From Candidatus Omnitrophota bacterium (GTDB taxonomy: Bacteria > Omnitrophota > Gorgyraeia > Gygaellales > Profunditerraquicolaceae), in NCBI GenBank assembly GCA_028716245.1, contig JAQUQW010000005.1:288-64287 (forward strand): a stretch of 64,000 bases of DNA, written 5' to 3'. The notes below the pieces were generated by a model. It had not been told where the DNA came from and searched no databases. It saw only the letters and a program-made list of their open reading frames with translations. Below are positions 17,071 to 52,210 of the stretch, one piece after another; position 1 is the stretch's first letter; each line of letters begins with the position of its first letter. A program made the position numbers and the translations under genes.

Positions 17071-17146
17071 AAATACTACAGCCGTAAAAGGGTTTCTTTA
17101 AGTGCGGCAAGTATGATAGAATTAAATGGAGAATTAAAAATGATCG

Positions 17147-21350: not shown

Positions 21351-21419
21351 TAAATAGGGACAGCGACCATTTTTTAAGAACCCTTGGATTCGTAAAAAAT
21401 GGTCGCTGTCCCTATTTAT
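21351..21419. repeat. perfect palindrome (25 bp arms TAAATAGGGACAGCGACCATTTTTT, 19 nt loop); bidirectional terminator-like element / MITE-like pair of the IRs that bound the 49476-51752 insertion
   Basis: Arms at 21351-21375 and 21395-21419 are exact reverse complements. It sits between tRNA-Leu (+) and the 3' end of the minus-strand response regulator. Confidence 0.7.
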
Positions 21420-22354: not shown

Positions 22355-22358
22355 AGTT

Positions 22359-23837: not shown

Positions 23838-23838
23838 T

Positions 23839-25517: not shown

Positions 25518-25731
25518 CTTTTTATGCGTTTTCCGATACAGAATTAGCTGTATATATTGGAATTCTAGCAGAGTTACTGCATTATCCGCTGGAAGAGTAA
25601 AGCTTACCAGTACTCAGTTACAAAATCAATCCTAAATCTTAGGGTAAGATTTTCTTTCCGTCCAATCTACCTTGACAAATTAACAAATAAGCGTTATATT
25701 CATAAAATGAAATGTCCAATCTGGAGGATTT

Positions 25732-31377: not shown

Positions 31378-31378
31378 T

Positions 31379-38430: not shown

Positions 38431-38443
38431 AAGGGAGGATAAA

Positions 38444-38995
38444 ATGAATATAGGAAAATATAATTTGCGCAAGGCAAGTATAAATATTTTTGCAGCGTTA
38501 CTTTTTATTACCGCCAATGCTTATGCCCAAGACCCGGAAAAGGAAATGTTCGATAAAGGCAATGACTATTTTAAAAGTAAGCTCTACGATAGGGCGATTA
38601 GCGCGTTTAATACCGCCATTCAGATTAAGCCGGGTTATAGCGCCGCGTATTATCACCGGGGGCGTGCCTACGCTGAAAACGGGGACATTGACCAGGCAAT
38701 CTCTGACTACGCCAAGGCAATAGAACTCAACGCTAATTATACAAAGGCATATTATCGGCGTGGCCTTGCCTATGCTAAAAAGGGTGATCTTGATCAGGCA
38801 ATCTCTGACTACGCCAAGGCAATAGAACTGGATCCCAAATTAGCCGGGGCTTATAATAACCGGGCCAGCGCGTATTTTCTAAAGCAGGAATACAATAAAT
38901 GCTGGGAAGATGTCCACAGGTTAGAAGCGTTGGGCGAGAAACCGCATCCTGAATTCCTTGAGCAATTGAAGAAGTTATCCGGCAGGGAAAGGTGA
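38444..38995 (+). CDS. secreted TPR-repeat protein (TadD-like candidate)
   Basis: Signal peptide and at least 4 TPR units; exact internal 35 bp duplication (38693-38727 = 38799-38833). Confidence 0.6.
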   Translation: MNIGKYNLRKASINIFAALLFITANAYAQDPEKEMFDKGNDYFKSKLYDRAISAFNTAIQIKPGYSAAYYHRGRAYAENGDIDQAISDYAKAIELNANYTKAYYRRGLAYAKKGDLDQAISDYAKAIELDPKLAGAYNNRASAYFLKQEYNKCWEDVHRLEALGEKPHPEFLEQLKKLSGRER

Positions 38996-40603
38996 ATTAG
39001 GCGCGGCGGTTTTCCTTACATAGATATTTATTTCTGTGTTGGGGCGTTCATGCAGATTGAGCATCTGCGTAACGGCTAATTTGCGGTGCCATATAAAATT
39101 ATCAAGCCATTTCAAAAAAGATGATTTTCCTTTGAAGGAAGGCATAAGATAGGATGGCGAAGGAAGAATCTGGGGCCTATAGTGGGTAATTTTCAGGTAA
39201 TACTCATTCACGTAGGGCATTATTTTTAGTTCGCTTTCTTTTTGCATCTCAGTTTCCTTATTCTGAAATCTACCCAAGAGAATAATTTCCGGTTTGTACT
39301 TTTCTAATACGGTTATAAGGTAGGCCGGCCGCAGGTTTTTAGTGAATATTCTTTTGGCGGAGATAACCGCTAGTTCAGGCGGGACCGCAATACCGGCATA
39401 AAAAGCAAAAATCGGCATATCGGTGAATATCCAGCGCACGCTTCGGCGATAACCTGACAATAACTCAACTGTTTTGCGTTCTTCCGCCGTCGTTTTATCC
39501 TTCAGGTCCATGAGCATGCCATTATATTTAAAAGGCAATCTTAGCAAGATCAGGATTATCAGGCTTAAGATTAACCAACGCATCCACCTTTTCTTTTTCC
39601 TCACGGCAAAAAAGCATTCGCTAAAACCAATTGCCGCCAGCCAACTCGCCGGGATTGCAAGAAGAAGATAGTAATACTGCCGGACAGGTTTATAATTAAG
39701 CAGGATGGCCAAAGCCGCCGCCAACCATAAGACCGGGAAAAAAGACCGGTATTTTTTTTCTCTGCAGAGAAGGATTATGCCAATCAGGGCAAGCAGAAAA
39801 ATATCCCAGTCCCGGAACAGCACTTTGTTACAGACAGCAAGAAACGTATCTTGATTATATCCGGGGATTAGCCCTTTGCTTGCAGTATAGTGGGGCTTAA
39901 TTAATTGCTGAATTAACATATAAAAATTAAAATGGAAAAATGTTATAATAATGGCAAAGTAAATCATGAAGGAACTCCCGAGCCACAGCGTAACAGGCAA
40001 AAGGGAGTGATTTCTGTCCTTTAAATTTGTTTTTTCGATTTGAGCTATTTCTAATATAATGAGCGGTATGAGAAAAATTGTAATTAACTTGATTTGTAAA
40101 GAAAGCGCCAGAAGAATTCCCGATAACACTAAAAAGTGCTTTAAATAAAATTTTTTATAAAGATGTATAAAATAAACTGAAAGCATCGCCAAGCTCAAAG
40201 CGGGAAGGTCGTTGGCGATCGAAATACTCAAGCGCAGGTAAGTGGCAGATAAAACTAAAAATATAATTGCCACAAGCGCGCAAAAACTTCCGCGCAGGCC
40301 TTTAACGGTTTGATAAAGCGCCCAGAGAAGCATGCCTGAGAAAACAAATATTAAGGTGCGCCCGGAGGCAACCGACTGGCCGAATAATTTAAGCCAAAAG
40401 GAAAGAATAACCGTCAATAAGGGTGGCTGGTCGCTCCAGATTTCTTTATAAAGAGAAAACCCCTTTAGGAAGAGGGAAGATTTCATCAATTCGTTCCCTT
40501 CGTTGGGGATAAATTCAAAGGTTTCTTTAATGGGAGATTTTACGATGAAGAATAGGGCAATTAAAATAATGAAGAAAAAAATGGCGGGTAAAAAACGACG
40601 CAT
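38975..40603 (-). CDS. GT-C fold glycosyltransferase, ArnT/PMT (GT83/GT39)-like
   Basis: 542 aa, ~12 TM; N-terminal loop ...IPNEGNELMKS (DE-like motif) typical of polyprenyl-P-sugar-dependent GT-C enzymes. Confidence 0.6.
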   Translation of the reverse strand: MRRFLPAIFFFIILIALFFIVKSPIKETFEFIPNEGNELMKSSLFLKGFSLYKEIWSDQPPLLTVILSFWLKLFGQSVASGRTLIFVFSGMLLWALYQTVKGLRGSFCALVAIIFLVLSATYLRLSISIANDLPALSLAMLSVYFIHLYKKFYLKHFLVLSGILLALSLQIKLITIFLIPLIILEIAQIEKTNLKDRNHSLLPVTLWLGSSFMIYFAIIITFFHFNFYMLIQQLIKPHYTASKGLIPGYNQDTFLAVCNKVLFRDWDIFLLALIGIILLCREKKYRSFFPVLWLAAALAILLNYKPVRQYYYLLLAIPASWLAAIGFSECFFAVRKKKRWMRWLILSLIILILLRLPFKYNGMLMDLKDKTTAEERKTVELLSGYRRSVRWIFTDMPIFAFYAGIAVPPELAVISAKRIFTKNLRPAYLITVLEKYKPEIILLGRFQNKETEMQKESELKIMPYVNEYYLKITHYRPQILPSPSYLMPSFKGKSSFLKWLDNFIWHRKLAVTQMLNLHERPNTEINIYVRKTAAPNSPFPAG

Positions 40604-40650
40604 AATGAAATTAATTTTATCCTATATTTATTGTTAGCGCAAGTCCAATA

Positions 40651-41724
40651 ATGAATTACTTAAGATTTCTTTTTATTCTGTCAAAAAACCGGTTGGGGAT
40701 TATTCCTTATCCGTCCCTGGTTACTTTTATCGTTACCTGGAGATGCAACCAGCGGTGTTTAATGTGCGGCATATGGAAAAAGGGGAAAAAATATGAAATG
40801 GCATTAGATGAGATTGGCGGCATATTCAGCCGGTTAAGGCCGTTGGATGCTGTGCGGATAACCGGAGGAGAGCCATTTTTAAGAGACGACCTTACGCAAA
40901 TAATTGACCTTATCGATAAATATACCAAACCCCCGGTAATTCATATTACAACCAACGGCACGTTGACAAAAAGGGTCCTGGATTTTATAAAAAATGTTAA
41001 AAATCCGCAAAATATCCATATAAAAATATCAATTGACGCGCTGAAAGAAGAGCACAACCGGATAAGGGCGGATAATGAATCATACGATAAAGCGATGTTA
41101 ACCTTAACCGAATTATCGGGTTTAAAACAAAAATACGGGTTTTATCTGGGGGTCAATCAAACAATAGTATCACAGGAGTGTTTCAATGATTATCAGGGCT
41201 TAAGGGGGATTTGCAATAAATACCATGTAAAATTATATCCGGTATTAGCCTATTCCAGTCCGCCGCTTTATGCGGCGGATGATTATTCTGACAAAATTCC
41301 GGAAGGATGTAAAACAAGCGTATTGGGGGGTTTTTCTCAACAGCAGATTATAGAGATGTTCAACATATTTGAAAAAGACCCGTCAGGATGGGATAATTTT
41401 GCTGAAAAGATAACCGCCAAATATTATCTTAAAAAAATACGCGAGCATTTATTGCGCGGGAAAAACCATACTCAACCAGAATGCGTTGCTTTGCGCAGCC
41501 ACTTACGTATACTTCCCAATGGCGACGTCCCGGTGTGCCTGTATAATCCCGCAATCGCAGGAAATTTGTTGGCAGAGTTGAATTTTAAAAAATTCTGGTT
41601 CAAGAATAAAAATATTGCAAAATACCGGCAGGATATCCGCAGGTGCCCAGGCTGTTGGGCAAAGTGCGAAGTCATTCCTAACGGGATATATAGCGGTGAT
41701 ATTATCAGAGCCATTTTTAGTTGA
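40651..41724 (+). CDS. radical SAM protein (CxxxCxxC) with Cys-rich C-terminal (SPASM-like) region
   Basis: WRCNQRCLMCGIW cluster near the N-terminus; C-terminal CPGCWAKCE. Confidence 0.7.
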   Translation: MNYLRFLFILSKNRLGIIPYPSLVTFIVTWRCNQRCLMCGIWKKGKKYEMALDEIGGIFSRLRPLDAVRITGGEPFLRDDLTQIIDLIDKYTKPPVIHITTNGTLTKRVLDFIKNVKNPQNIHIKISIDALKEEHNRIRADNESYDKAMLTLTELSGLKQKYGFYLGVNQTIVSQECFNDYQGLRGICNKYHVKLYPVLAYSSPPLYAADDYSDKIPEGCKTSVLGGFSQQQIIEMFNIFEKDPSGWDNFAEKITAKYYLKKIREHLLRGKNHTQPECVALRSHLRILPNGDVPVCLYNPAIAGNLLAELNFKKFWFKNKNIAKYRQDIRRCPGCWAKCEVIPNGIYSGDIIRAIFS

Positions 41725-41739
41725 GTAAAAGGGAGTAAG

Positions 41740-42477
41740 GTGCTTAAATTTTCGGTCATCATCTCGGTATACAATGAAGAACAGGCAGCCGCCCAGCTCT
41801 ACTATTCTTTAAAGAAAGTTATGGATGGATTAGGGCAAGCTTATGAAACTATTTTTGTAAATGACGGTTCAACCGACAAGAGCCTGGATATGCTAAAGAG
41901 TATTAACTTAAGCCCGGCGAATTTAGTCATTGTCGACTTAGATAAACATAGAGGACAATCTACGGCTTTGCAGGCGGGGTTTGATATTTCCCGGGGAAAG
42001 TTTATCATTACCATGGATGGCGACCTGCAGAATGATCCTGAGGATATCCCCCGTATGCTGGATAAGCTGCAAGAGGGCTATGATCTTGTTTGTGGCTGGA
42101 GGCATAACCGAAAAGATCCCCGGATTAAGGTAATTATTTCTAATCTTGTTTCTTTTTTTCTTCGGCTTATGGTAAAGCAGAATATCCATGATTTTGGCTG
42201 TCCCATGAGAATCTTAAAAAAAGAAGCCTTAAAGGATGTCTATTTGTCTAAAGGAATGCATAGATTTTTTACTTTACTAATGTTTAAATTGGGATATAAG
42301 ATTGGAGAAGTTGAAGTGAATCATCGTCCACGAAGATTTGGAAAGTCAAAATACAATATACACAACAGATTATTTGAGTGCCTATTTGTTTTTTTACGCA
42401 TTTCATTATATGATATCCGTAACTTAAGGGAATACCATGAACCGGATTATAAGATTAAGGGGGTAATTAGAAAATGA
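41740..42477 (+). CDS. GT2 polyprenyl-phosphate glycosyltransferase (DPM1/ArnC/GtrB-like)
   Basis: SVIISVYNEE, DGSTDKS, and TMDGDLQNDPEDIP motifs; 245 aa. Confidence 0.8.
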   Translation: MLKFSVIISVYNEEQAAAQLYYSLKKVMDGLGQAYETIFVNDGSTDKSLDMLKSINLSPANLVIVDLDKHRGQSTALQAGFDISRGKFIITMDGDLQNDPEDIPRMLDKLQEGYDLVCGWRHNRKDPRIKVIISNLVSFFLRLMVKQNIHDFGCPMRILKKEALKDVYLSKGMHRFFTLLMFKLGYKIGEVEVNHRPRRFGKSKYNIHNRLFECLFVFLRISLYDIRNLREYHEPDYKIKGVIRK

Positions 42478-42815
42478 AGATTATTAATTTAAGCAAAAAC
42501 GCGGTCTTAGCAGATAAGGCAAGGATGGCGGATACCTTCTGGAAGCGGCTGGTAGGGTTGCTTAACCGCAATTCACTGGAAAAAGGAGAAGCACTCGTTC
42601 TAAAACCGGCAAACAGTATACATACATTTTTTATGGGTTTTCCCATAGATGTCTTATTTTTAGACAAAAATGGAAAGGTTATTGGTTTGTTTCCTGTGTT
42701 TAGGCCTTTTCACATTACCTCTGTTTATTTTGGCGCTTCTCTAGCTATTGAACTGCCCGCGGATACCCTCCGGCTTACTCAAACAAAATTAGCGGATAGC
42801 ATTAAAATCGAATAA
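42474..42815 (+). CDS. DUF192 (COG1430) family protein
   Basis: 113 aa; ...RLVGLLNRNSLEKGEALVLKP.NSIHTFFMGFPIDVLFLD...; 4 nt overlap with the upstream GT2. Confidence 0.5.
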   Translation: MKIINLSKNAVLADKARMADTFWKRLVGLLNRNSLEKGEALVLKPANSIHTFFMGFPIDVLFLDKNGKVIGLFPVFRPFHITSVYFGASLAIELPADTLRLTQTKLADSIKIE

Positions 42816-43065
42816 ATAAATGTCCAATTAAACAATAAATTCCTAAAATAATGTCCAATCTGTATAAAATCGCCCACCAAATGAAAAAATTCATCATAAT
42901 TCAAAAAACCGAATCTTAGATTTATTCTATACGCGAGTCATCCTTAAAAAATTATTAAAAAACCTGGAATTAAGCGAATAAGGGCCAAAAATAATCAGTT
43001 TTGGATTGATCCTTTTCTGCGACTTTAACATCTTGGAAACGCTTTCTTTTGTGAGGCATATCTAC

Positions 43066-43094
43066 TTGACAAGCACTCTTCAGCGTGGTAATCT
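43066..43094 (+). promoter_or_regulatory. sigma70-like promoter of the pilin cluster (TTGACA-17-TAATCT)
   Basis: -35 at 43066-43071, -10 at 43089-43094, just upstream of the first pilin-like ORF. Confidence 0.5.
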
Positions 43095-43098
43095 TTAA

Positions 43099-43365
43099 GT
43101 GCAAAATAAAAAGGTGTTTCTCGACGATAATAAGAGTTTAAGAATGAATTATTTTATGCAGTTTATAATGGCTTTTAAAAAGGCCGATAGAAGCCATCTT
43201 GCGCAAAAAAATTTTTCTGATAAAAAAGCGCAATCAATATTTGAATATGTCATATTAACGGCAGTTGTAGTGACGACTGTTTTAATTTTTGGGCCGTATT
43301 TCGGTAAGATAAAAGATTCTTGTGACAAAGCTTTTAATGCCGCGGTTACGGAGATAGTAAAATGA
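43099..43365 (+). CDS. divergent Flp-type pilin-like protein (true start probably internal)
   Basis: ...KKAQSIFEYVILTAVVVTTVLIF... pilin-like segment. Confidence 0.4.
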   Translation: MQNKKVFLDDNKSLRMNYFMQFIMAFKKADRSHLAQKNFSDKKAQSIFEYVILTAVVVTTVLIFGPYFGKIKDSCDKAFNAAVTEIVK

Positions 43366-43505
43366 GAAACAAAGCGCAAAGCACAATTGAATACGCGTTA
43401 TTAATTGCCATTGTGGCAGCGGCATTTTTGGCGATGAATGCGTATATGCAGCGTTCGGTACAGGCAAATTTTAACGTAATTGAAGAGCAGATAAATGCGC
43501 AGTAA
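43362..43505 (+). CDS. Flp-family pilin (47 aa; below the ORF-track size cutoff)
   Basis: MRNKAQSTIEYALLIAIVAAAFLAMNAYMQR...; ATGA overlap with the upstream gene. Confidence 0.6.
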   Translation: MRNKAQSTIEYALLIAIVAAAFLAMNAYMQRSVQANFNVIEEQINAQ

Positions 43506-43526
43506 TTAGAAGGAGGGAGGTTAAAG

Positions 43527-43694
43527 ATGCGTAACAAAAAGGGCCAGAGTATCTTGGAGTACGTGATTGTATTAACCGTCATAGTTATAGCGGTTGCTCT
43601 AGCGGCGACCAAGTGGATTAAACCCGCGGTTGATCAGGGATTAAATGATGCTTCAAAAAGTATTAATAATGCTACAGGGCAATTGCCAAAATAA
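43527..43694 (+). CDS. Flp-family pilin (55 aa) with canonical G/XXXXEY site
   Basis: MRNKKG|QSILEYVIVLTVIVIAVALAA...; RBS AGGAGGGAGG. Confidence 0.7.
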   Translation: MRNKKGQSILEYVIVLTVIVIAVALAATKWIKPAVDQGLNDASKSINNATGQLPK

Positions 43695-43717
43695 TTATTT
43701 TAGGGGAGGTGAATAAG

Positions 43718-44071
43718 ATGTTTAACAAAAAGGGCCAGAATACAGCGGAATACGCGATACTTATCGCGTTGATAATCGCGGCAGCAGTGGGAATGCAGAC
43801 TTACGTTAAAAGGGGCTTACAGGGAAGGGTGCATGAGGCGGTTAGGAATACCGGCCAGGCACTACCAGATGTGGGAGGTGCCAGTTTGAGTTTTAGCGGC
43901 AACCAGTATGAACCGTATTATACTGAGTCTGACACAAAAGTAAAAAGCGCCAGAACTGCTCAGGAAACACTGGGTAACCGCGGCCAGATTACCCGCTCTA
44001 ACGTACAAGAAGCAACCACGGTTGATATTGGAGGAACTGAGAAAGTCAATAGCACAGCCGGAGCTGATTAA
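43718..44071 (+). CDS. Flp-type pilin with ~80 aa C-terminal extension
   Basis: MFNKKG|QNTAEYAILIALIIAAAVGMQTYVKRGLQGR...; RBS GGGGAGGTG. Confidence 0.65.
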   Translation: MFNKKGQNTAEYAILIALIIAAAVGMQTYVKRGLQGRVHEAVRNTGQALPDVGGASLSFSGNQYEPYYTESDTKVKSARTAQETLGNRGQITRSNVQEATTVDIGGTEKVNSTAGAD

Positions 44072-44084
44072 GGAGGTGAATAAG

Positions 44085-44429
44085 ATGTTTAACAAAAAGG
44101 GCCAGAGCACATTGGAATACGCATTGATAACCGCGGTGATAATTGCCGGGCTTTTACTGATGCAGCATTATATGAAGCATGGTTACGCCGGAAGATTGAA
44201 ATCAGCCAGTGATGATATCGGCGAGCAATATGACCCTAGCAAATATAATGCAACATTTAACGTAACCAACAAGAGTTATACGCAACAGACTGCTACAGGC
44301 GGAGCCACAACCCAACAGTATCTTGATTTAGGCGATGGTTCTAATGCTGGTAGGGTGCAGAAAAAAGAGAGTGTTGCCAACGAAACGATTGATGCCTGGG
44401 GCCAGAATGAGAGCTTGTATAGTAAATAA
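44085..44429 (+). CDS. Flp-type pilin with C-terminal extension
   Basis: MFNKKG|QSTLEYALITAVIIAGLLLMQHYMKHGYAGR...; RBS AGGAGGTG. Confidence 0.65.
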   Translation: MFNKKGQSTLEYALITAVIIAGLLLMQHYMKHGYAGRLKSASDDIGEQYDPSKYNATFNVTNKSYTQQTATGGATTQQYLDLGDGSNAGRVQKKESVANETIDAWGQNESLYSK

Positions 44430-44763
44430 AACAATCGGGATACGCAGGGCGCAAAGCGTAGCTGAATATAGCGTTTGTTTGGCACTAGTTTTAGCCGCGC
44501 TTTTGGGGATGCAGATTTATGTAAAAAGAGGCTTGCAGGGAAGATACAAAGAATTGGTTGACCAGGCGGCTAAACAGGCCGCAAGCGCGGCTCAATTGGC
44601 TACAAGCCCGAAACAATATGAGCCGTACTATGTTCAGGACAGATTTAGAGTCAGCCAGTCTAAAATAACCAATGAAACTAGCAGTTCCCCCGGCAAAATG
44701 AATCGGGATTTTGTTGAGGATAGCACGGCAGTTAAAGGCACAGCCACAAGGGATGTGCAATAA
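44407..44763 (+). CDS. Flp-type pilin-like protein with C-terminal extension (start uncertain)
   Basis: ...IRRAQSVAEYSVCLALVLAALLGMQIYVKRGLQGRYKE... Confidence 0.5.
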   Translation: MRACIVNKTIGIRRAQSVAEYSVCLALVLAALLGMQIYVKRGLQGRYKELVDQAAKQAASAAQLATSPKQYEPYYVQDRFRVSQSKITNETSSSPGKMNRDFVEDSTAVKGTATRDVQ

Positions 44764-44764
44764 A

Positions 44765-45940
44765 ATGCGTAAAAGAGCCCAGAGCATAAATGAATATGTG
44801 TTGGTGATTGCCCTAGTTACCTTAGCTGGTATAGGTATGCAGATTTATATTAAACGGGGCATACAGGGTATAGTGAAGACCTCTGCCGACAGATTAGCCG
44901 GTGAAAAAGGAGATTCAGTTGTGTATACGGGCAGTGCCAAAAGCATTTTACCCCGTGCGCAGTGGAATCCCGTTGCCATCGCGTACGCGGATAATAAGCT
45001 CAACGGCGGATTTTTTGTGGCTGAGGTAACCGGCAACCAAGTTTATTATAATCTTTATTCCGATAGCAGCAACCTTAATAATAAAACAGTTATTGGCGGG
45101 CAGGACTTAGCCAGCGGTGATTTTACCAGTTATGACTGGGAGGGTTATGTTGACGCGGTTTATGATAAAAACGGCAATTTAATTCAGAGTTTTACTCCCA
45201 AGCAGGCAAGGGCTGACTATGCTCCATATGAAATACTCTCATTAAATACTGCGGCGAATAAATCCATGGTCCAAAGTGGAGTGATGGAATTAGGCCTGGT
45301 TGCCTTTGACCAGAAAGATCATCCGTTGAAATTTACGGCGGACAAAAAAGTTATCGTACATACTGTTTCAAAGCATAGCATCAGCCCGCAAAATTTAGCC
45401 GCGGCGAATTGGCATCCGGCGATGACAGCGTATCAGGTGAAAATGGTACAAAATAATATTCCAGGATTTATCCAGGCAGAAGTGCAAGGCAATATGGTCT
45501 ACTATTATACATTCACCACCGATATCAAAAACAAGATACTTTTCGGCGGAGAGAATCTGCACACGGGGGATTTTACCCAATTCGGACCGGATGGTTTTCC
45601 CATCTCAACCGTAGATAGTAATCTCACTGTGCTCAGGACCTACAGCGGTTATGTAACCGATCCGGTAACCAAGGAGATTACGGGTATAATCGGCAGCGAC
45701 GGCAACATTTATGGGCAAAACCAGATAGTAACAATAAGCCCGGTGCTTCCAACCACTGGCCCGGCAACGGTTGCTTCTCCGATGACAACAAAGACCATCG
45801 ACCATGACACGACTCATGTTACCGGAGCATGGACCGCGGTTTATAAATTGGAAAACGCAAACACATTCGGCGCTAGGGACAAAACCGGTTTAAATAATAA
45901 TAATTTAAATGCTGGTAACAACGTGACGGGGCACCAATGA
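44765..45940 (+). CDS. giant Flp-type pilin (391 aa) with duplicated ~130 aa C-terminal repeat module
   Basis: MRKRAQSINEYVLVIALVTLAGIGMQIYIKRGIQG..., then two homologous blocks (...FFVAEVTGNQVYYNLYSD...GGQDLASGDFTSYDWEGY... / ...FIQAEVQGNMVYYYTFTTD...GGENLHTGDFTQFGPDGF...). Confidence 0.6.
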   Translation: MRKRAQSINEYVLVIALVTLAGIGMQIYIKRGIQGIVKTSADRLAGEKGDSVVYTGSAKSILPRAQWNPVAIAYADNKLNGGFFVAEVTGNQVYYNLYSDSSNLNNKTVIGGQDLASGDFTSYDWEGYVDAVYDKNGNLIQSFTPKQARADYAPYEILSLNTAANKSMVQSGVMELGLVAFDQKDHPLKFTADKKVIVHTVSKHSISPQNLAAANWHPAMTAYQVKMVQNNIPGFIQAEVQGNMVYYYTFTTDIKNKILFGGENLHTGDFTQFGPDGFPISTVDSNLTVLRTYSGYVTDPVTKEITGIIGSDGNIYGQNQIVTISPVLPTTGPATVASPMTTKTIDHDTTHVTGAWTAVYKLENANTFGARDKTGLNNNNLNAGNNVTGHQ

Positions 45941-46326
45941 TAACACGGGTTAGAAAACACAGATTAAACAAAGCAAAGGCGCAATCGACATTAGAATACG
46001 CCGTAGTCGTTGCCTGCGTAGTGGCAGCGCTTTTAGGTATGCAGTTTTACATCAGGCGGGGAATACAGGGGAAATTAAGGCAGGCAGCGGATGAGACCGG
46101 TGAGCAGTATACGCCGTTGAACGTGGATTCGAATATTACCACGCAAACAACGTCGACTACAACGGTAACGCAAAGTTTAACTCCATTAAACAGGGCGCCC
46201 GGCGTTCCTTTAAATGATGAGTATGATTTACCTGTATACGGAATAAAGACAGATACAAGTATTGATGAAACCACTACAAAAGACGGACAAGAAACATTAG
46301 GAGAGTTTGAAAATGGCTTATTTTAA
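45937..46326 (+). CDS. Flp-type pilin with Thr-rich C-terminal extension
   Basis: ...KAKAQSTLEYAVVVACVVAALLGMQFYIRRGIQGK...TTQTTSTTTVTQS... Confidence 0.6.
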   Translation: MITRVRKHRLNKAKAQSTLEYAVVVACVVAALLGMQFYIRRGIQGKLRQAADETGEQYTPLNVDSNITTQTTSTTTVTQSLTPLNRAPGVPLNDEYDLPVYGIKTDTSIDETTTKDGQETLGEFENGLF

Positions 46327-47326
46327 TAAAAAGGCGCAGAGTTTGACTGAGTTAGCTACTTTTGGCTCGGTACTTTTATTGGTGCTCTCCTTTTTTATCA
46401 GTTATGGGATGCGTTATAATTACCAGCAGGAGATACAGATGCGCGCTTTTCGCACCGCCCTTGCGCAGGCCTATACTAATACCAACCGGCCGGATGCCTC
46501 AGCTTCGGTTGTGTTGGTTGATGATAGGCATATACCGGATCCCCGCGATATGTTTGGCGCGGGTAGTATCGTTCCGGTGGAAGGCGGCGCTGAGGTAACC
46601 TGGGGCAATACTATGCAGGATGGATATCTCAATGTTACCAATCCTCCGCTTTTGCCCACGATAAAATACGTATTTAATGATCGGAATCCTGCAAACAGAG
46701 CGGAACGTGAATATAAAACCGCCGGTTATAATTATATTGATAATGCTTATCCATTCTATGTTATATTGCCTGGTAATACCGCGCCACAGTTAATAACCTG
46801 GGTAAATGTAAGGAATTACCAGCCTACCCCGGATTCGCCGCAACAGGCTATGGTATTGTTACCGAATCAAGATAAAGAGGTAATTACTGAGCTTTATTTG
46901 AAGACGGCGGGCCCGACGCCGGGATATATAAAATTTCAGATTATCGGAGTCAGGACTAATCCGCCCAATGGCGGTGATGGGACGCCCATTGACCAGATAT
47001 ATTTATTAAGTCCATCTTCAGGAGAGATCAACCCTAATTATATGCAATTAAATAATGATGTTGATATGAATGGTACTCCCGATGTAACTCCTGCTAATAT
47101 TCAAGGGCTATTATTGGAGGATAAGCAGGATATCCGGCGCAGCGGAACTATTACAATACAAGAGACTCCCGGGAAAACTATAAGCACCAGCACATACAGT
47201 TTTAAGGATAAAGCCGGGAATCCCACGACAATTACCCATAAAATTAGGAGTAGTTCAGGGGTGGAAGAGATTAATTTTCCTTTTGAGAGGGGAGGTGTTC
47301 CTTCGACATGGACAACACAAAAGTAA
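46313..47326 (+). CDS. TadE/TadF-like pseudopilin (339 aa)
   Basis: MAYFNKKAQSLTELATFGSVLLLVLSFF (TadE-like N-terminus), then a large periplasmic domain. Confidence 0.55.
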   Translation: MAYFNKKAQSLTELATFGSVLLLVLSFFISYGMRYNYQQEIQMRAFRTALAQAYTNTNRPDASASVVLVDDRHIPDPRDMFGAGSIVPVEGGAEVTWGNTMQDGYLNVTNPPLLPTIKYVFNDRNPANRAEREYKTAGYNYIDNAYPFYVILPGNTAPQLITWVNVRNYQPTPDSPQQAMVLLPNQDKEVITELYLKTAGPTPGYIKFQIIGVRTNPPNGGDGTPIDQIYLLSPSSGEINPNYMQLNNDVDMNGTPDVTPANIQGLLLEDKQDIRRSGTITIQETPGKTISTSTYSFKDKAGNPTTITHKIRSSSGVEEINFPFERGGVPSTWTTQK

Positions 47327-47565
47327 AAGCCCAAGTTGCGCTTGAGTTTGTCACCGCTTTTATTTGCACCATTCTTTTCTTGGTGGCAACCGCGCAAATA
47401 TTTGTCTGGTTCGGAAACACCATCGTTAACCGGAATAAAGCGTATGAAGAGACTCGCGCTGCACAGTGGCAATGGTTTAATCAGCCCGGTGATCCAATTA
47501 ACCCGGTGATAGTGGATTTCTATAATCAAAGCGATTATCCTCTAGATATATTCCATAAGAAATAA
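47308..47565 (+). CDS. TadE-like small pseudopilin
   Basis: MDNTKVKAQVALEFVTAFICTILFLVATAQIF... Confidence 0.5.
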   Translation: MDNTKVKAQVALEFVTAFICTILFLVATAQIFVWFGNTIVNRNKAYEETRAAQWQWFNQPGDPINPVIVDFYNQSDYPLDIFHKK

Positions 47566-47568
47566 AAA

Positions 47569-47739
47569 ATGAAAAAAAAAGGGATGAGCGTGGTAGAATA
47601 TAGTTTATTGATTGCCATAGTGATTGCCGGACTTTTGGCAATGCAGGTTTATGTTAAACGGGCGGTTAATGGACGCTGGAAGGAAACCGGAGATGTGTTT
47701 GGTTTTGGCAGGCAGACGGATAAAACGCTTCTAAAATGA
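47569..47739 (+). CDS. Flp-family pilin (56 aa); A9 homopolymer in codons 2-4
   Basis: MKKKG|MSVVEYSLLIAIVIAGLLAMQVYVKRAVNGRW...; ATGA overlap with tadB. Confidence 0.7.
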   Translation: MKKKGMSVVEYSLLIAIVIAGLLAMQVYVKRAVNGRWKETGDVFGFGRQTDKTLLK

Positions 47740-48581
47740 GACTACTAATTATCTTGCTTATTTTCGGATCGATCGGCGGTTTGGCCTATGAATTAATTCC
47801 CCTGCTTTTAGGCCGCTATTCTCAACTCCAGAGTAAACGCATGGAGAAAGCCTCCAAAGAGCTGCATCAGATGTTTATTTATACCGAAAAACACCGTTTA
47901 CTGCCGATGTTTACGATTACGCCTCTGGCGTTGGGCGCGCTGGGATTCATTATTTCGCATAACCTGCTGGGTGTTTTGGTGGGCGCGGGACTGGGTTTGT
48001 TATTGCCCCGGATATGGATTAAAAATGTTGGGCGCAAAAGGCAGAATGATTTTGCCAGGCAGCTGGTAGATGCGCTTATGCTTCTTTCCAGTTCTCTTAG
48101 GGCAGGGATGAGTTTACCCCAGGCATTTGAAGTACTTACCGAAGAGATGCCCGCGCCAATCAGTGATGAGTTCGCCTTGGTGATCAAAGAAAATAAAATG
48201 GGCGTGACTTTAGAGGATTGTTTGGCGCATCTCAAGCAAAGGATTCCCCTGGATGATTTGGAATTATTGACTACCGCCATAAGCATTTCCCGGGAAACCG
48301 GAGGTGACTTGACTGAAATTTTCGCCAACTTAGTGCAGACCATCAGGGAAAAAAGAAAATTAGATGACCGGGTAAAAGTACTGACTGTGCAGGGCCGCCT
48401 GCAAGGGGCGATTATGGGGCTTTTGCCAATCGCGTTCGCGATTTTCATTTATTTCATTAACCCGCACAATTTTGACATAATGTTTAGTGATAAAACCGGC
48501 CAGATGCTGCTTGTTTGGGCGGTGGTTTCCGAAGTAATCGGGGTAATCCTTATCCGGAAATTAAGCCGGGTGGAGATATAA
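47736..48581 (+). CDS. tadB: Flp pilus assembly inner-membrane protein TadB (T2SSF domain)
   Basis: 281 aa, TM-cytoplasmic domain-TM topology, T2SSF-like. Confidence 0.75.
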   Translation: MRLLIILLIFGSIGGLAYELIPLLLGRYSQLQSKRMEKASKELHQMFIYTEKHRLLPMFTITPLALGALGFIISHNLLGVLVGAGLGLLLPRIWIKNVGRKRQNDFARQLVDALMLLSSSLRAGMSLPQAFEVLTEEMPAPISDEFALVIKENKMGVTLEDCLAHLKQRIPLDDLELLTTAISISRETGGDLTEIFANLVQTIREKRKLDDRVKVLTVQGRLQGAIMGLLPIAFAIFIYFINPHNFDIMFSDKTGQMLLVWAVVSEVIGVILIRKLSRVEI

Positions 48582-48583
48582 AG

Positions 48584-49468
48584 ATGGAACTGGCGCTGAT
48601 TATTTTATTTTTGTTTACCAGTATCGGATTTGTGGCTTATTACGTTTCCAATCGAAAGCTGGTCGAAGAAGTGCATTTGCCTTCCGAGATTACCGGCGGA
48701 CCGGGGTCGGGGCTTAAGAAGGCATTTAATTTTAAAAATATTTTAAGCGGGCCAGCCAGTTTTATCGAGCGTTTGTTCGGCAAATCAAGCCTTTCTTTAC
48801 CTACGAGCGATTTGCATAAACGGTTAACTTCCTCAAATAAAATAATGAGCGTCAGCCAATTTATGGTATTCAAATTTTTAATGGCCGCGGCAGTGCCGTT
48901 GGCTGCCCTGATTATCGCTCAAGCAAAACCAGCGTTGCTGCTGCTTTGCGCCGGCATCGGTTTTATTTTACCGGATATCTGGCTGAATAAGCGGATCAAG
49001 AAAAGACGCGCCTTGATTGTAAAAGACCTGCCTTTGGTAATCGACCTTTTGAATATTTGCGTGGGGGCCGGTCTGGATTTTATGGTGGCGGTTAACCGGG
49101 TAATCCAGGAATTCAGGCCTTGCGCGCTTATTGAAGAAATGAAGATAATGACCAACGAAATCCAAATGGGCATTTCCCGGCGTGACGCGTTAAAGAATAT
49201 GTCCGCCCGCATTAATAACCCTGAGATCAGCTCGTTTGTGAGGACTCTTCTGCAGGCAGACAGGATCGGCACGCCGATAAGCGAGGCATTGAAGATGCAG
49301 TCAGAGGAGATCCGCCTGCGCTGGTTCCAAAAAGGCGAAGAAATGGCTTTGAAAGCCCCGATTAAGCTCTTATTCCCCCTGCTAATATTTATCCTTCCGG
49401 TGGTTCTAATCATTGTGGCCGGCCCTATTTTGATCCAGTTTACCAAGGGCGGGATGATGAAGTTTTAG
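48584..49468 (+). CDS. tadC: Flp pilus assembly inner-membrane protein TadC (T2SSF domain)
   Basis: Starts at MELALIILFLF; T2SSF-like (GAGLDFMVAVNRV...). Confidence 0.75.
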   Translation: MELALIILFLFTSIGFVAYYVSNRKLVEEVHLPSEITGGPGSGLKKAFNFKNILSGPASFIERLFGKSSLSLPTSDLHKRLTSSNKIMSVSQFMVFKFLMAAAVPLAALIIAQAKPALLLLCAGIGFILPDIWLNKRIKKRRALIVKDLPLVIDLLNICVGAGLDFMVAVNRVIQEFRPCALIEEMKIMTNEIQMGISRRDALKNMSARINNPEISSFVRTLLQADRIGTPISEALKMQSEEIRLRWFQKGEEMALKAPIKLLFPLLIFILPVVLIIVAGPILIQFTKGGMMKF

Positions 49469-49594
49469 AAATAGTAAATAGGGACAGCGACCATTATTTT
49501 GGATAAGACGGGGCCGGATCTAATAGATTCGGTCCTTTTATTTTAGTTAGATTTCATCTATTGCTGCGTCTATTGCGATAGAAAGGGGGCTTAA

Positions 49595-50107
49595 ATGAGC
49601 GCAAAAGATATTTCTGCAGAAGTAGTGGCAACAAAGATTCTGGTGGTACGTGGCAGGAAAGTGATGTTGGATAGGGATTTGGCGGAGTTGTATAGCGTAA
49701 AGACGCGGGATTTGAATAAAGCAGTCGAAAGGAACAGGGATCGTTTCCCGAATGACTTTATGTACCAACTTACAAGAGAAGAAGTTACAATCTTGAAGTT
49801 CCAATTTGGAACATCAAGTTGGGGTGGAACGAGAAAACCTCCGAATGTTTTTACTGAGCAGGGCGTCGCGATGCTTTCTGGTATATTGCATTCTAAACGT
49901 GCAGTGCAGGTTAACATCGCTATTATGCGGGCATTCGTTAAGCTGCGCGAGGTGTTACTAACGCATAAGGATTTAGCCCAGAAACTTGAGGAATTGGAAC
50001 AAAAATACCAATTGCATGAAACAGATATCCAGGTAATATTTGAGGCGATTAAAAAATTGCTTGAGCCACCGGATGAGCCTCCAAAGCCGCGGTTTGGGAT
50101 GAATTGA
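49595..50107 (+). CDS. ORF6N (KilA-N-like) domain protein
   Basis: ...VVRGRKVMLDRDLAELYSVKTRDLNKAVERNRDRFPNDFMYQLTREE... followed by a coiled-coil C-terminus. Confidence 0.65.
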   Translation: MSAKDISAEVVATKILVVRGRKVMLDRDLAELYSVKTRDLNKAVERNRDRFPNDFMYQLTREEVTILKFQFGTSSWGGTRKPPNVFTEQGVAMLSGILHSKRAVQVNIAIMRAFVKLREVLLTHKDLAQKLEELEQKYQLHETDIQVIFEAIKKLLEPPDEPPKPRFGMN

Positions 50108-50516: not shown

Positions 50517-51515
50517 TTAATTTTGTTGATAATGTTTGCCGTTACAGGTTAGCTCCTTTCTTATCCGGATTAAAGCAGTGGTCCATAGCAAAAGCGACTT
50601 GGGATTGGAAGCGCAACGGTTGCGGCGCAATAAATCTCGGGTAATACAGCACATTGCTTCCACCGAATTTGTTGTAGTTGGTAAGTTTAATTCCGGATGC
50701 GCCTGATATGCCCTGTAATATCTGATAGATTGAAGGAACTCGCGTACCATAGCTTGAATGCGTTGAGTCCCACAATAACTCTGGGACAGCTGAATCAAAC
50801 GTGTTAGCAGAACATTTAGATGCGGTCTGCTTGAAGCTTCCAGGGCTTGGCGGATTAAATAATAGATTTCTTCGCGGACGCCTCCGCCTTTGAGCATCCG
50901 TCTTTCGCGGCCTCGTTGAATTTGGAGCTTCAAAATCAGATGGAAATGGCAAAGTTGGAGAATCCATCCTTCTCTCTTGGCTATACGTTTCATGCCTTGC
51001 AGATTGTCGACGACCAAGGCTTGAATTCGAGATCGTGGTTCTGGAGGGATAGCTGTAAAAGCCCGTCTCCATTTGTAAGCTCCTTCTTTACCCGGAAGAA
51101 GAATCGGATCCAGGAAAACAGCCGTTTTGCCCGAGCAAGACTTTAATGCGGTGAGATATAGGATCCAAGGTTTGCTGTGAAAATGGAACCAAAGGCCATC
51201 TGCTAAAAGGACACGCGGCCCGGAAGGCAATTTTTGAGGGGCTGGATGAGCAACAAAACGTTGCAGTAATTGTCGAAATCGATAGCGGAAAGCCAGTAAC
51301 TCTATTCCGGGACGCCGTTGAACTAAATGAATAAGCGTATACTTCTCCAGGAAAATCTGCTTCAAAACATTCAGAGGGATACGGATAATCGGCCGTCCAC
51401 GTTTCTTGAGACGAATCGACCATGTTCGTTTACAGGAAGAACATTGCCTACGCCGCTGACCAAAACGATAAACTTTTGCATTACAACAAGGGGATTTCGC
51501 ATGTTTTGTCTTCAT
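50517..51515 (-). CDS. putative DDE transposase with N-terminal zinc ribbon (IS1/IS1595-like)
   Basis: N-terminal CCNAKVYRFGQRRRQCSSCKRTW; candidate catalytic blocks LLADGLWFHF, LVVDNLQGM, NSVEAMCCITRDLLRRNR. Family assignment is tentative. Confidence 0.45.
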   Translation of the reverse strand: MKTKHAKSPCCNAKVYRFGQRRRQCSSCKRTWSIRLKKRGRPIIRIPLNVLKQIFLEKYTLIHLVQRRPGIELLAFRYRFRQLLQRFVAHPAPQKLPSGPRVLLADGLWFHFHSKPWILYLTALKSCSGKTAVFLDPILLPGKEGAYKWRRAFTAIPPEPRSRIQALVVDNLQGMKRIAKREGWILQLCHFHLILKLQIQRGRERRMLKGGGVREEIYYLIRQALEASSRPHLNVLLTRLIQLSQSYCGTQRIQAMVREFLQSIRYYRAYQAHPELNLPTTTNSVEAMCCITRDLLRRNRCASNPKSLLLWTTALIRIRKELTCNGKHYQQN

Positions 51516-52044: not shown

Positions 52045-52210
52045 TGGGTGTAAGTTGAAATGCCTTTTTTATTTGAAAACTTAGTAAGAAATTTTAAAAA
52101 CATTTTAAAATCCGGTAATCTCTTATGAAAAGAAGCTTCATTAAAAAAATGAAAAGTCTTGGGGTAAGGGGAAATATTTATTTTTTATTTAATACTATAG
52201 AAAATAAAAG

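Follow-up and report, generated by a model that had tools for sequence, protein, structure and literature searches.

The defining trait of Tad major pilins is a helix-only size of 40–60 amino acids (PMC10710030), and an archaeal system resembling Epd has been proposed as the ancestor of Tad systems (PMC6668835). The Epd (EppA-dependent) system of Methanococcus maripaludis has many pilin-like genes, both small (54–63 aa mature) and much larger (PMC3875500). In Omnitrophota, Seymour et al. (2023) reported that the Tad complex of Ca. Velamenicoccus archaeovorus is complete and expressed in co-culture (PMC10066038), and West-Roberts et al. (bioRxiv 10.1101/2023.11.21.568195) described a "type II secretion-like locus" upstream of the giant genes of this phylum. 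The locus analyzed here is the same one (PPIase, rcpC, secretin, ATPase, two GspF/TadBC genes, and a giant gene). Its small genes were left unresolved in both studies, and earlier mention of them goes no further than "small genes with class III signal peptides".

The window is the whole 64,000-nucleotide stretch of a contig from an uncultured Omnitrophota bacterium. Inspection of its ORFs revealed 11 pilin-like genes (P1–P11), tightly packed on the same strand at 43168–47739 and flanked by a DUF192 gene and tadB/tadC inside a Tad locus, which also holds RcpC, secretin, TadZ–TadA fusion, and TadG-like genes (Table 1). The domains found in this context are RcpC, Secretin, T2SSE with ParA, the Tad N-terminal domain, and two T2SSF proteins. 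An earlier note on this DNA counted at least nine pilins; all of its ORFs are present on the plus strand, and the nine proteins with a Glu–Tyr (EY) site are joined by two uncounted pilin-like genes, P9 and P10. Here, we propose that the cluster probably encodes the full set of filament subunits for a Tad (type IVc) pilus machine in its Omnitrophota form. We take the products to be short Flp-like subunits accompanied by an enlarged set of minor pilins.

Table 1. Features of the Tad locus in the window. A slash marks the predicted cleavage site.
Feature	Position	Strand	Size (aa)	Characteristics
Upstream Tad machinery (five genes)	27918-35859	+		profile matches
PPIase	27918-28823	+		upstream Tad machinery
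RcpC/CpaB	28823-29728	+		upstream Tad machinery
Secretin	29725-31377	+		upstream Tad machinery; TonB_C tail
TadZ(ParA)–TadA(T2SSE) fusion	31379-33556	+		upstream Tad machinery
TadG-like protein	33556-35859	+	767	upstream Tad machinery
DUF192 protein	42474-42815	+		PF02643, E=4e-15; conserved gene between tadZ-tadA and pilin cluster
DNA motif AATGTCCAAT, two copies	42819-42858 (42819-42827, 42850-42858)	+		conserved; upstream of pilin genes
Promoter-like block	43066-43094	+		TTGACA-17 nt-TAATCT; ~75 nt before P1 ATG; read from sequence
P1, short pilin-like	43168-43365	+	65	KKA/QSIFEY; mature 44 aa; no KRG motif
P2, short Flp-like pilin	43362-43505	+	47	NKA/QSTIEY; mature 42-43 aa; variant motif AMNAYMQRSVQANF
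P3, short pilin	43527-43694	+	55	KKG/QSILEY; no KRG motif
P4, extended pilin	43718-44071	+	117	KKG/QNTAEY; MQTYVKRGLQG; invariant QYEPYY at 63-68
P5, extended pilin	44085-44429	+	114	KKG/QSTLEY; MQHYMKHGYAG; GEQYDP
P6, extended pilin	44407-44763	+	118	15-aa leader MRACIVNKTIGIRRA/QSVAEY; MQIYVKRGLQG; QYEPYY
P7, pilin-like	44765-45940	+	391	KRA/QSINEY; MQIYIKRGIQG; two helix+sheet domains
P7 repeats	44963-45196 and 45410-45646	+		internal repeat comparison
P8, extended pilin	45937-46326	+	129	KAKA/QSTLEY; MQFYIRRGIQG; GEQYTP; C-terminal GEFENGLF
P9, large TadE/F-like pseudopilin	46313-47326	+	337 (from ATG)	KKA/QSLTEL
P10, small TadE/F-like pseudopilin	47308-47565	+	85	KA/QVALEF; IFVWxN motif
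P11, short pilin	47569-47739	+	56	KKG/MSVVEY; MQVYVKRAVNG; GFGRQ
TadB-like platform protein	47736-48581	+		T2SSF domain, E=5e-18
TadC-like platform protein	48584-49468	+		T2SSF domain, E=7e-15
Terminator-like hairpin	49510-49536	+		12-bp stem then T run; after tadC

All 11 products start with a short basic leader followed by Gly or Ala, Gln at +1 (Met in P11; Table 1), Glu at +5, Tyr, Phe, or Leu at +6, and approximately 20 hydrophobic residues, which is the type IV pilin/class III signal-peptide module. The site in nine of them follows the pattern [KR]x[G/A]/Qxxx-E5-Y6, and P9 and P10 are TadE/F-like with E5-L/F6. When the nine EY proteins were aligned, the N-terminal module matched throughout with invariant Glu and Tyr, and pairwise BLASTP gave E-values down to 1e-19. 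The residue at −1 is Gly in P3, P4, P5, and P11 and Ala in P1, P2, and P6–P10. The earlier note took these for two processing-site classes. Both residues do occur, but they interchange within single orthogroups (RKRAQS and RKIGQS in P7 orthologs; KKGQN and KKAQT in P4 orthologs) and therefore do not define separate classes. Over 847 sites, −1 is Gly in 63%, Ala in 36%, and Ser in 2%; the near-constant feature, which had not been singled out, is Gln at +1 (93%).

In profile searches, no window protein reached the cut-off of any curated pilin model. The designation "Flp-type" failed in this respect, as the best Flp_Fap match (P2, E=8e-4) scored 19.5 against the required 32.2 bits. The window proteins score about equally on the archaeal-type Class_IIIsignal model (PF04021, DUF361; 13–19 bits, cut-off 23.7). 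None satisfied N_methyl (P3, 16.7 versus 21.2 bits) or matched TadE (PF07811), and no Pfam family was matched by the window P9. P3 also gave a weak match to Geobacter PilA-N (E=0.05). Among 119 orthologs, Class_IIIsignal was matched by 23 (best E 1e-8), Flp_Fap by 17 (best E 1.5e-5), and TadE by four. The weak recurrent matches were confined to Class_IIIsignal, Flp_Fap, DUF4244, TadE, and N_methyl, and sequence searches recovered none of the solved pilins, 8U1K included. The pilin-like nature of the proteins holds nonetheless, by their type IV/class III N-terminus inside a Tad-type locus, and the Flp size holds for the helix-only P1, P2, P3, and P11 (40–60 aa) but is exceeded by the others.

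Past the hydrophobic stretch, the earlier note described a shared segment, MQxY(V/I)KRG(L/I)QG. It is exact in P4, P6, and P7, near-exact in P8, and degenerate in P5, P11, and P2 (MNAYMQRSVQA); seven of the nine EY proteins thus carry it, but P1 and P3 do not. Judged from sequence, AMQxYxKRGxQGR (mature positions 19–31) is the true family signature of P4–P8 and P11. Another motif, Q[YFW]xP, had been overlooked; it is carried by P4, P5, P6, and P8, and P1 and P3 have neither motif. As suspected earlier, the post-helix motif marks a distinct subfamily, which is large and unannotated: 2928 matches were obtained among 90% clusters and 4287 among representatives of 50% clusters (E<=1e-3), and the 120 matches listed all lack both a Pfam domain and an informative name. 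The pilin set belongs to a large protein family without any curated model. In the AlphaFold models, the motif lies inside one long helix (residues 5–43 of P4 and 9–45 of P7). We infer that the basic motif prolongs the helix just beyond the membrane, where it probably offers different subunits a common face for packing or registration and so allows them to coassemble.

The extensions are rich in Ser, Thr, and Asn as described (23–34% versus 14.8% in 21 other window proteins), and P5 has five N-x-S/T sequons. They are diverse, with mutual similarity only between P4 and P6, which are full-length paralogs with extensions 33–35% identical. In a 54-sequence alignment for P4, the mean column identity is 0.85 in the helix, 0.99 in QYEPYY, and 0.35–0.38 in the rest, and the drop from helix to tail is typical of pilins. 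The P4 model adds only a low-confidence hairpin (75–102) to the helix. The reported duplication of a ~130-aa module in P7 is real, but its period is 149 aa with ~80 aa detectably similar (residues 67–144 versus 216–294; 33% identity, E=3e-14). AlphaFold gives two similar helix+sheet domains at about 60–160 and 210–330 (pLDDT 70–90), for which the structure search found no fold neighbor. P7 has just 23 full-length homologs, and the protein at its position in two related loci (L002 and L021) is only 123–137 aa; the 391-aa form is a clade-specific enlargement with internal duplication. Structure prediction and fold search detected no known fold in the extensions; the tail models were either of low confidence or without a fold neighbor.

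Class III signals are known on nonpilus proteins in Sulfolobus. By analogy with the archaeal sugar-binding "bindosome", the short proteins alone might be filament subunits, with P4–P9 using the signal only for export or membrane anchoring; the diverse tails and the large domains of P7 and P9, which match no known fold, would suit such a role. We consider this decidedly improbable. P4–P8 retain the whole helix and the AMQxYxKRGxQGR segment in common with the short P11, which argues for a common packing role; the genes stand in a fixed order, one copy each, like minor-pilin sets; and most of the products, ~100 aa when mature, are too small for binding proteins.

The locus was compared with 83 related loci from species-representative genomes. 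The same pilin orthogroups recur in roughly the same order in most of them, and the gene order PPIase–RcpC–secretin–TadZA–DUF192–pilins–(TadG)–P11–TadB–TadC is likewise found in most, including V. archaeovorus LiM. The DUF192 gene keeps its equivalent position in most loci, and P11, whose stop codon overlaps the tadB start in the window, directly precedes TadB in most. P3 has 110 orthologs, many loci having two to three copies, and is preceded in the window by a strong GGAGGGAGG ribosome site. P1 has 22 distinct orthologs (consensus kkKGQSIFEYfILTAvV), including one of equal length in L001; P9 orthologs number 62 sequences (QALtELAvFG...YNyQQ); P4 is identical to P0001 and P8 to P0005, with P8 orthologs conserved at 119–134 aa. 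For P1, the longest stop-to-stop reading is an 88-aa ORF beginning at 43099, and P9 has an alternative start (TTG at 46307). The leader MRACIVNK...RRAQS is conserved in P6 orthologs (P0002, P0013, and P0018), which supports a P6 start at the ATG at 44407, overlapping the end of P5. Some database entries have mis-called starts (P0075 and P0106 begin at MAEYS, past the predicted cleavage site); none occurs in the window.

Tandem genes with related N termini and variable tails, together with the extra P3-, P4-, or P5-type copies of some loci, could suggest that one pilin recently gave rise to paralogs as a means of surface (antigenic) variation, and the long ORFs could be mis-called starts or frameshifts. 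Either is extremely improbable. Each gene has its own orthologs in distant genomes and its own signature (QYEPYY; GEQYTP...GEFENGLF; the MRACIVNK leader), lengths and starts agree across many genomes, and no ORF requires a frameshift. Since the same orthogroups recur in roughly constant order phylum-wide, the genes are not recent paralogs from a local expansion, as the word "paralogs" had implied; the synteny table already contradicts that reading.

On our preferred reading as a pilus subunit set, the precursors would insert in the inner membrane, and an A24 aspartic-type prepilin peptidase encoded elsewhere in the genome would cleave after Gly/Ala(−1); neither the window nor, in any of the 83 loci, the DNA up to 10 kb from the cluster encodes such a peptidase. 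The TadB/TadC platform and the TadZ–TadA ATPase would then extract the mature subunits from the membrane and build a filament by stacking the N-terminal helices; this filament would exit through the RcpC ring and the secretin. P1, P2, P3, and P11 (42–51 aa mature) are the shaft candidates by their Flp-major-pilin size and helix-only build; the choice of a major subunit is a guess from size. P4–P8 share a ~55-aa Flp-like core of helix plus basic motif, to which Q[YFW]xP is added in all but P7. Their probable role is that of minor pilins, which would either prime assembly or, as decoration of the tip or surface, bind a target cell. We infer that P9, P10, and the TadG-like protein occupy the places of TadE, TadF, and TadG; the TadG of L002 has an M23 peptidase domain. 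The window, L005, L006, L031, and L055 have GT-C (PMT_2) and GT2 genes adjoining the pilin cluster. This glycosyltransferase island is restricted to one clade, where the neighboring genes make O-glycosylation of the tails plausible.

A different product, a short, T2SS-like periplasmic pseudopilus that pushes or presents the neighboring giant protein at the surface, rather than a long adhesive pilus, is conceivable but unlikely. In the window, the open frame from 52208 runs for at least 3931 aa and includes a C39 peptidase domain. A gene with an N-terminal region homologous to that of this frame stands behind tadC in roughly half of the 83 loci, and many of the remaining loci end before that point. 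The one-major, many-minor layout of T2SS and the name given by West-Roberts et al. point the same way, as does the DNA: besides preceding the pilin cluster, AATGTCCAA also lies ahead of the region that follows tadC in 20 cases. However, adjacency alone does not imply secretion, and the giant proteins are reported to have their own signal peptides and many membrane spans (West-Roberts et al.). Split TadB/TadC, TadZ, and RcpC mark the machinery as Tad-type, not Gsp-type, and the pilins have Tyr6, lack Phe1, and fall below the N_methyl cut-off. Across the window and the 83 loci together, AATGTCCAAT occurs 124 times where about 13 copies would be expected, and 97 copies lie ahead of the first pilin gene. 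The promoter-like block is conserved in L001 and L007 but absent from the consensus-scan output.

Among known systems, the proteins resemble Flp pilins (Caulobacter crescentus PilA, PDB 8U1K; Aggregatibacter Flp1) in the short leader, Glu5-Tyr6, the hydrophobic helix without Pro22, and the tad-locus setting with TadA/B/C/Z, RcpC, and secretin; P1, P2, P3, and P11 share their size (PMC10710030). They differ in the prevalent Gln+1, Ala at −1 at a rate of one in three sites, the basic segment, five members with tails of 60–340 aa, a cluster of 11 genes instead of one to three, no tadV in the locus, and Flp_Fap scores below the cut-off. In classical tad loci, TadE, TadF, and TadG are larger pilin-like proteins that share this kind of N terminus, have Glu5 followed by Phe/Leu, and are encoded beside tadB/tadC. 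P9, P10, and the 767-aa protein fit their places, whereas P4–P8, marked by Tyr6 and the KRG motif, are an additional layer absent from classical loci, and the Pfam TadE model is rarely matched. Type IVa minor pilins (FimU–PilVWXE) and T2SS pseudopilins (GspH–K) prime assembly and cap the filament. They similarly combine one or a few short subunits with larger pilin-like proteins that occur as single copies in a conserved, ordered block, but here there is no Phe1 or N_methyl signature above the cut-off, the globular parts are unrelated in sequence, and the assembly platform is different. With archaeal Epd pilins, the set has Gln+1 and Glu+5 in common, and DUF361/Class_IIIsignal is the family most often matched by the orthologs; the mixture of small and much larger pilin-like proteins in this related archaeal system is a precedent. 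However, the archaeal proteins lack Tyr6 and the Flp motif, the window proteins stay under the PF04021 cut-off, and the host here is a diderm bacterium with a secretin. The ordered pilin set recurs phylum-wide, usually ahead of a giant gene, including in the one described predator of the Omnitrophota. Within the literature searched, this is the first description of the 11 orthogroups and their order, of the Gln+1 site and the two motifs, and of the extended members and the upstream DNA motif.

Eleven open reading frames, tightly packed or overlapping, encode pilin-like proteins numbered P1–P11 in gene order, with lengths of 65, 47, 55, 117, 114, 118, 391, 129, 337, 85, and 56 aa, respectively. 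Strong ribosome-binding sites are found upstream of P3, P4, and P5. All eleven N-termini follow one layout, consisting of a short basic leader, Gly or Ala, Gln, three residues, Glu, Tyr, and about 20 hydrophobic residues; the exceptions are Met for Gln in P11 and Leu (P9) or Phe (P10) for Tyr. The nine proteins with Glu5–Tyr6 (P1–P8 and P11) can be aligned over their N-terminal 45 residues and match each other in BLASTP with E values down to 1e-19. The Flp-like pilin array described in the earlier note is thus real, and the multiple alignment proposed there could be made; its count of at least nine pilins agrees with the Glu–Tyr proteins but missed the TadE/F-like P9 and P10. The predicted mature lengths are 44, 42, 49, and 51 aa for the short proteins P1, P2, P3, and P11, and 103–386 aa for the extended proteins P4–P8.

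Of the nine Glu–Tyr proteins, four have Gly and five have Ala just before the predicted cleavage site (−1), Glu5–Tyr6 is present in 9/9, and Gln occupies +1 in 10/11 window proteins. A regular-expression census of 847 sites in 84 loci (median about 10–11 sites per locus), in which the TadC N-terminus and a few other false positives are counted and whose search pattern fixes Glu+5, gave Gly (63%), Ala (36%), and Ser (2%) at −1, Gln at +1 in 93%, and Tyr (78%), Leu (9%), and Phe (6%) at +6. Gly and Ala are exchanged at −1 inside single orthogroups, and the two processing-site classes that had been distinguished are therefore rejected in favor of a single site whose −1 position is tolerant. Gln+1 was also considered as a unique trait and rejected. 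Several P6 orthologs in public sets (P0035, P0037, and the NCBI-annotated Omnitrophota MAG proteins P0075 and P0106) begin at MAEYS, past the predicted cleavage site; their leaders were removed by automatic start calling. Two motif searches covering the window and the surroundings of the cluster (up to 10 kb) in 83 related loci detected no prepilin peptidase (A24).

The tad genes (T2SSE with CbiA/ParA, two T2SSF, Secretin, RcpC, and Tad N-terminal domain) form one same-strand block around the pilin genes, as listed in the table with the neighboring features.

Features of the Tad region and its surroundings in the window
Feature	Position	Strand	Evidence or context
rve integrase gene	5886-6488	-	
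Wzy_C (O-antigen ligase/O-oligosaccharyltransferase family) gene beside GT4 initiating transferase	15946-17896	+	26 kb upstream of pilins
FIST-domain protein, histidine kinase, response regulator with GGDEF	21419-25026	-	Just upstream of Tad region
AATGTCCAA(T) copy	25711-25719		
PPIase	27918-28823		
RcpC/CpaB	28823-29728		Pfam RcpC
Secretin with C-terminal TonB_C domain (residues 471-549)	29725-31377	+	Pfam
TadZ(ParA/CbiA)-TadA(T2SSE ATPase) fusion, 725 aa	31379-33556	+	Pfam T2SSE and CbiA/ParA
TadG-like protein, 767 aa	33556-35859		Tad N-terminal domain only
Clade-specific island: GH3+PIG-L fusion, TPR, GT-C (PMT_2, - strand), radical SAM/SPASM, GT2	36040-42477		Between TadG-like and DUF192
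DUF192 (COG1430)	42474-42815	+	Between tadZ-tadA and pilins in most related loci
AATGTCCAA(T) copies	42819-42827, 42850-42858		Also L021 at 6768 and 6830, and many other loci
P1-P11, eleven pilin-like ORFs	43168-47739	+	Window sequence
TadB	47736-48581		T2SSF
TadC	48584-49468		T2SSF
Terminator-like hairpin	49510-49536		3' of tadC
ORF6N-domain gene	49595-50107	+	3' of tadC; likewise in L001, L004, L007
332-aa ORF, Cys-rich N-terminus, possibly a transposase	50517-51515	-	No Pfam match; between tadC and giant gene
Giant ORF, at least 3931 aa, Peptidase_C39 domain near N-terminus	52208-64000	+	Runs off window end

Separate orthologs of every window gene occur, in unchanged order, in three related loci (L001, L002, and L021, the last from Ca. 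Velamenicoccus archaeovorus LiM). Across 83 loci from species-representative genomes, a BLAST-based table gave the following recurring layout: PPIase-RcpC-secretin-TadZA-DUF192-[short pilins, P4, P5, (P6), P7, P8/P5-like, P9, P10]-TadG-P11-TadB-TadC. The genes, first described as paralogs, form a conserved ordered set and not paralog noise. In the window's clade, TadG is relocated upstream and a glycosyltransferase island is inserted. TadZ–TadA fusions of equal size and domain content occur in L001 and L002, and L002 also has the secretin–TonB_C architecture. The TadG-like protein of L002, a distant relative (13096-15699, 867 aa), is located between P10 and P11 and carries a Peptidase_M23 (peptidoglycan endopeptidase) domain together with a Cys-rich region. 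Literature searches turned up no connection between DUF192 and pili.

The window pilins are present, identical, as "hypothetical proteins" in a Candidatus Omnitrophica MAG (locus tags PHG87_07200 onward). When the nine Glu–Tyr proteins were built into a profile, 2928 proteins among 90% clusters matched it; among the 120 matches listed, none has a Pfam domain and every named one is an Omnitrophota "hypothetical protein". Among representatives of 50% clusters, the P4-type profile reached 4287 at E ≤ 1e-3, of which 1281 had E ≤ 1e-10. When one genome per species was searched, a P4 relative was encoded in 236 stretches matching the search patterns, and the best 80 of these 236 are mostly from Omnitrophota-titled records. 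Two records with other titles were checked: L020 ("Planctomycetia") is 99.0% identical to Ca. V. archaeovorus LiM over 20 kb, and L030 ("Dehalococcoidia") has 6.3 kb at 99.8% in common with an Omnitrophota bin of the same study. Both titles look like labelling or binning artefacts.

P4, P6, and P7 carry an exact copy of the motif MQxY(V/I)KRG(L/I)QG just after the hydrophobic helix, P8 has a near-exact copy, P5, P11, and P2 have degenerate forms, and P1 and P3 have none; the motif exists as first reported, but its sharing among the paralogs was overstated. The consensus of P4–P8 and P11 (464 distinct sequences) is kKG|QStlEYAiLIavVvAAliAMQvYvKRG.QGRlk, with a variant form in P2 and no counterpart in P1, P3, P9, and P10. 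A second motif, Q[YFW]xP, lies 40–56 residues into the mature protein and occurs in 89/93 P4-type, 16/18 P6-type, 90/178 P5-type, and 5/12 P8-type sequences, compared with 0.6% of shuffled sequences and none of the P1–P3 sequences; in P7, the helix and the first motif are retained and Q[YFW]xP is absent. From this distribution, P4, P5, P6, and P8 look like a core of ~55 aa, comparable to the short P11, followed by a variable tail. Private signatures are found in P4 (QYEPYY, column identity 0.99), P6 (leader MRACIVNK...RRA|QS plus Cys in the helix), and P8 (GEQYTP...GEFENGLF).

The Ser, Thr, and Asn content of the tails is 23–34% against 14.8% in the other window proteins, in agreement with the Ser/Thr/Asn-rich extensions first described. 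In P7, the 391-aa member, residues 67–144 and 216–294 are duplicated (33% identity, E = 3e-14, offset 149 aa), and the reported module is therefore genuine but smaller than the ~130 aa given for it. Homologs of this large form number only 23, and the protein at the P7 position is short in L002 and L021 (123–137 aa), indicating that the duplicated domain is a clade-specific gain. AlphaFold prediction with family alignments gave a single long N-terminal helix spanning the KRG motif (residues 5–43 of P4 and 9–45 of P7). For the extensions, whose structure prediction had also been suggested, P7 yielded two helix-and-sheet domains (pLDDT 70–90), and P4 only a low-confidence hairpin after the helix. 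A comparison of the extensions with all other window sequence, the giant ORF included, revealed no shared domain except between P4 and P6. Because the ORFs, alignment, duplication, and tail composition were all found, the original observation is correct.

The GT-C and GT2 genes next to the cluster suggest possible glycosylation of the Ser/Thr-rich tails. Members of the Wzy_C family, to which the more distant gene belongs, glycosylate pilins of other bacteria. GT-C and GT2 genes also adjoin the pilin cluster in L005, L006, L031, and L055. On the upstream flank, the FIST, kinase, and GGDEF genes may place the Tad system under c-di-GMP control; a FIST gene flanks the locus in L002 too. A c-di-GMP riboswitch ahead of the cluster was considered and dropped because the Rfam search found no known RNA element there.

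Here, we propose that the eleven genes probably encode the subunit set of a Tad-type filament, based on the pilin-type N-termini, the Tad context, the phylum-wide order, and the motif in the helix. An A24 peptidase encoded elsewhere would cut after Gly or Ala, and TadB/C and TadZ–TadA would extract and polymerize the subunits. The shaft would be built from the short proteins, and P4–P8 together with P9, P10, and TadG would serve as minor pilins in priming, adhesion, or formation of the tip. The KRG motif would form a packing surface common to the subunits, and the tails may be O-glycosylated in the window's clade.

Omnitrophota are widespread, ultra-small bacteria thought to be predators or parasites, and genomic hints of how they attack other cells come chiefly from the Tad locus and the giant gene beside it. 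Homologs of the first 500 aa of the window's giant ORF are located 3' of tadC in roughly half of the 83 loci, and many of the remaining loci stop short of this position; the called giant products of L001 and L002 are 5202 and 8065 aa. The 9–10-nt motif AATGTCCAA(T) occurs in 124 copies in the 83 loci and the window, against ~13 expected, and 111/124 are on the operon strand, usually as 2–3 copies spaced by 12–63 nt. Of the 124 copies, 97 precede the first pilin gene, in the interval after DUF192 wherever the locus has that gene, and 20 lie within 3 kb past tadC, ahead of the giant gene. The window copy at 25711 is between a promoter-like TTGACA-17 nt-TATATT and the ribosome site of the ORF heading the Tad region. 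In a sigma-70 scan, sites were no more frequent than chance. The AATGTCCAA(T) motif is probably a regulatory site common to the pilin cluster and the giant gene.

The window giant ORF matches the Omnitrophota giant genes of West-Roberts et al. 2023 (bioRxiv 10.1101/2023.11.21.568195), who presented this locus as a conserved secretion system preceding giant genes. The main rival explanation, that the pilins form a secretion pseudopilus serving the giant protein, draws on this description and on the common DNA motif. We consider this explanation unlikely, and a Tad filament and a pseudopilus for the giant protein can hold together. A more speculative combination, to which we give little weight, is a Tad-derived mixed filament or tipped pseudopilus, unlike the all-helical Flp pilus, in which a constant group of five head-bearing subunits (P4–P8), joined by P9, P10, and TadG, would act as an adaptor docking, exporting, or aiming the giant protein at prey, with the pilin and giant genes switched on together via AATGTCCAAT. 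The Tad-type filament remains our preferred reading.

The finding is real and richer than first described: a divergent, enlarged Tad pilin repertoire, of which the literature already offered a glimpse, in a phylum about which little is known. The available part of Seymour et al. 2023 (PMC10066038) reports Tad complexes (TadBC, RcpA) across Omnitrophota and expression of the V. archaeovorus locus, and contains no analysis of its pilin genes. A 2025 limonene paper does not mention pili, and a literature search of incomplete coverage found no earlier account of the eleven orthogroups, the motifs, or the extended members. The filament subunits have until now been passed over as small unnamed genes. 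Eleven conserved subunit families, a predicted cleavage site, two sequence signatures, and a common upstream DNA motif are defined here, and with the two signatures a profile model could be built that covers thousands of proteins now called "hypothetical". The locus becomes testable with regard to the shaft subunit, the prey-binding subunits, and the cooperation of the pilus with the giant protein.

Known families were compared by profile searches. None of the window proteins reached the gathering cut-off of Flp_Fap (PF04964, 32.2 bits), the best being P2 (19.5 bits, E = 8e-4) and P5 (13.3 bits), with no match for the others. All were below the cut-off of Class_IIIsignal/DUF361 (PF04021, 23.7 bits; P4 18.8, P2 18.1, P1 15.9, and P5 13.1 bits), and only P3 matched N_methyl (PF07963) weakly (16.7 versus 21.2 bits), with Gln rather than Phe at +1. 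When 119 orthologs were scanned, 23 matched Class_IIIsignal (best E 1e-8) and 17 Flp_Fap (best 1.5e-5), both counted at E < 0.01, nine DUF4244, and four TadE (best 4e-4), and no family of any other kind recurred. The Flp_Fap search that had been called for thus stays below the cut-off in the window and gives matches at E < 0.01 for a minority of orthologs; the Class_IIIsignal matches imply that a few relatives probably pass the PF04021 cut-off. The V. archaeovorus orthologs show the same pattern (Flp_Fap ≤18 bits). Neither P9, with SLTEL, nor P10, with VALEF, matched TadE (PF07811), and ten of the proteins scanned against NCBIfam had no relevant match. PDB sequence searches with the nine-paralog profile, P2, P3, and the P4-family profile found no pilin except a marginal match of P3 to Geobacter PilA-N (E = 0.05).

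The Flp-type assignment of the earlier note is only partly right: Glu5–Tyr6, the tad locus, and the short size of P1, P2, P3, and P11 agree with it, but no protein reaches the Flp_Fap cut-off. Tad major pilins have 40–60 aa, no C-terminal domain, and always Tyr6 (PMC10710030); this size and single-helix form fit the four short proteins, not P4–P8. Like Flp pilins, the set has a G|XXXXEY-type Glu5/Tyr6 in a hydrophobic stretch and a tad locus, but −1 is Ala in five of nine. Type IVa pilins and T2SS pseudopilins have a G|F(M)TLxE site with Phe1, where the Omnitrophota proteins have Gln. Archaeal Epd pilins have Gln+1 and Glu+5 without Tyr6 or the Flp motif, and include small and much larger pilin-like proteins (PMC3875500). 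Gln+1 and Glu+5 are common to the Epd/DUF361 pilins, whose short leader ends in Gly, and the Omnitrophota set, which differs in Tyr6 (nine proteins), a bacterial host, and a secretin gene. The Omnitrophota set combines Flp traits (Tyr6, tad locus, short members) with Epd-like traits (Gln+1 and numerous pilins, small and large). Tad systems are believed to descend from an Epd-like archaeal system (PMC6668835), and a Tad pilin repertoire closer in appearance to the many-pilin archaeal Epd than to the textbook Flp bears on the evolution of Tad pili.
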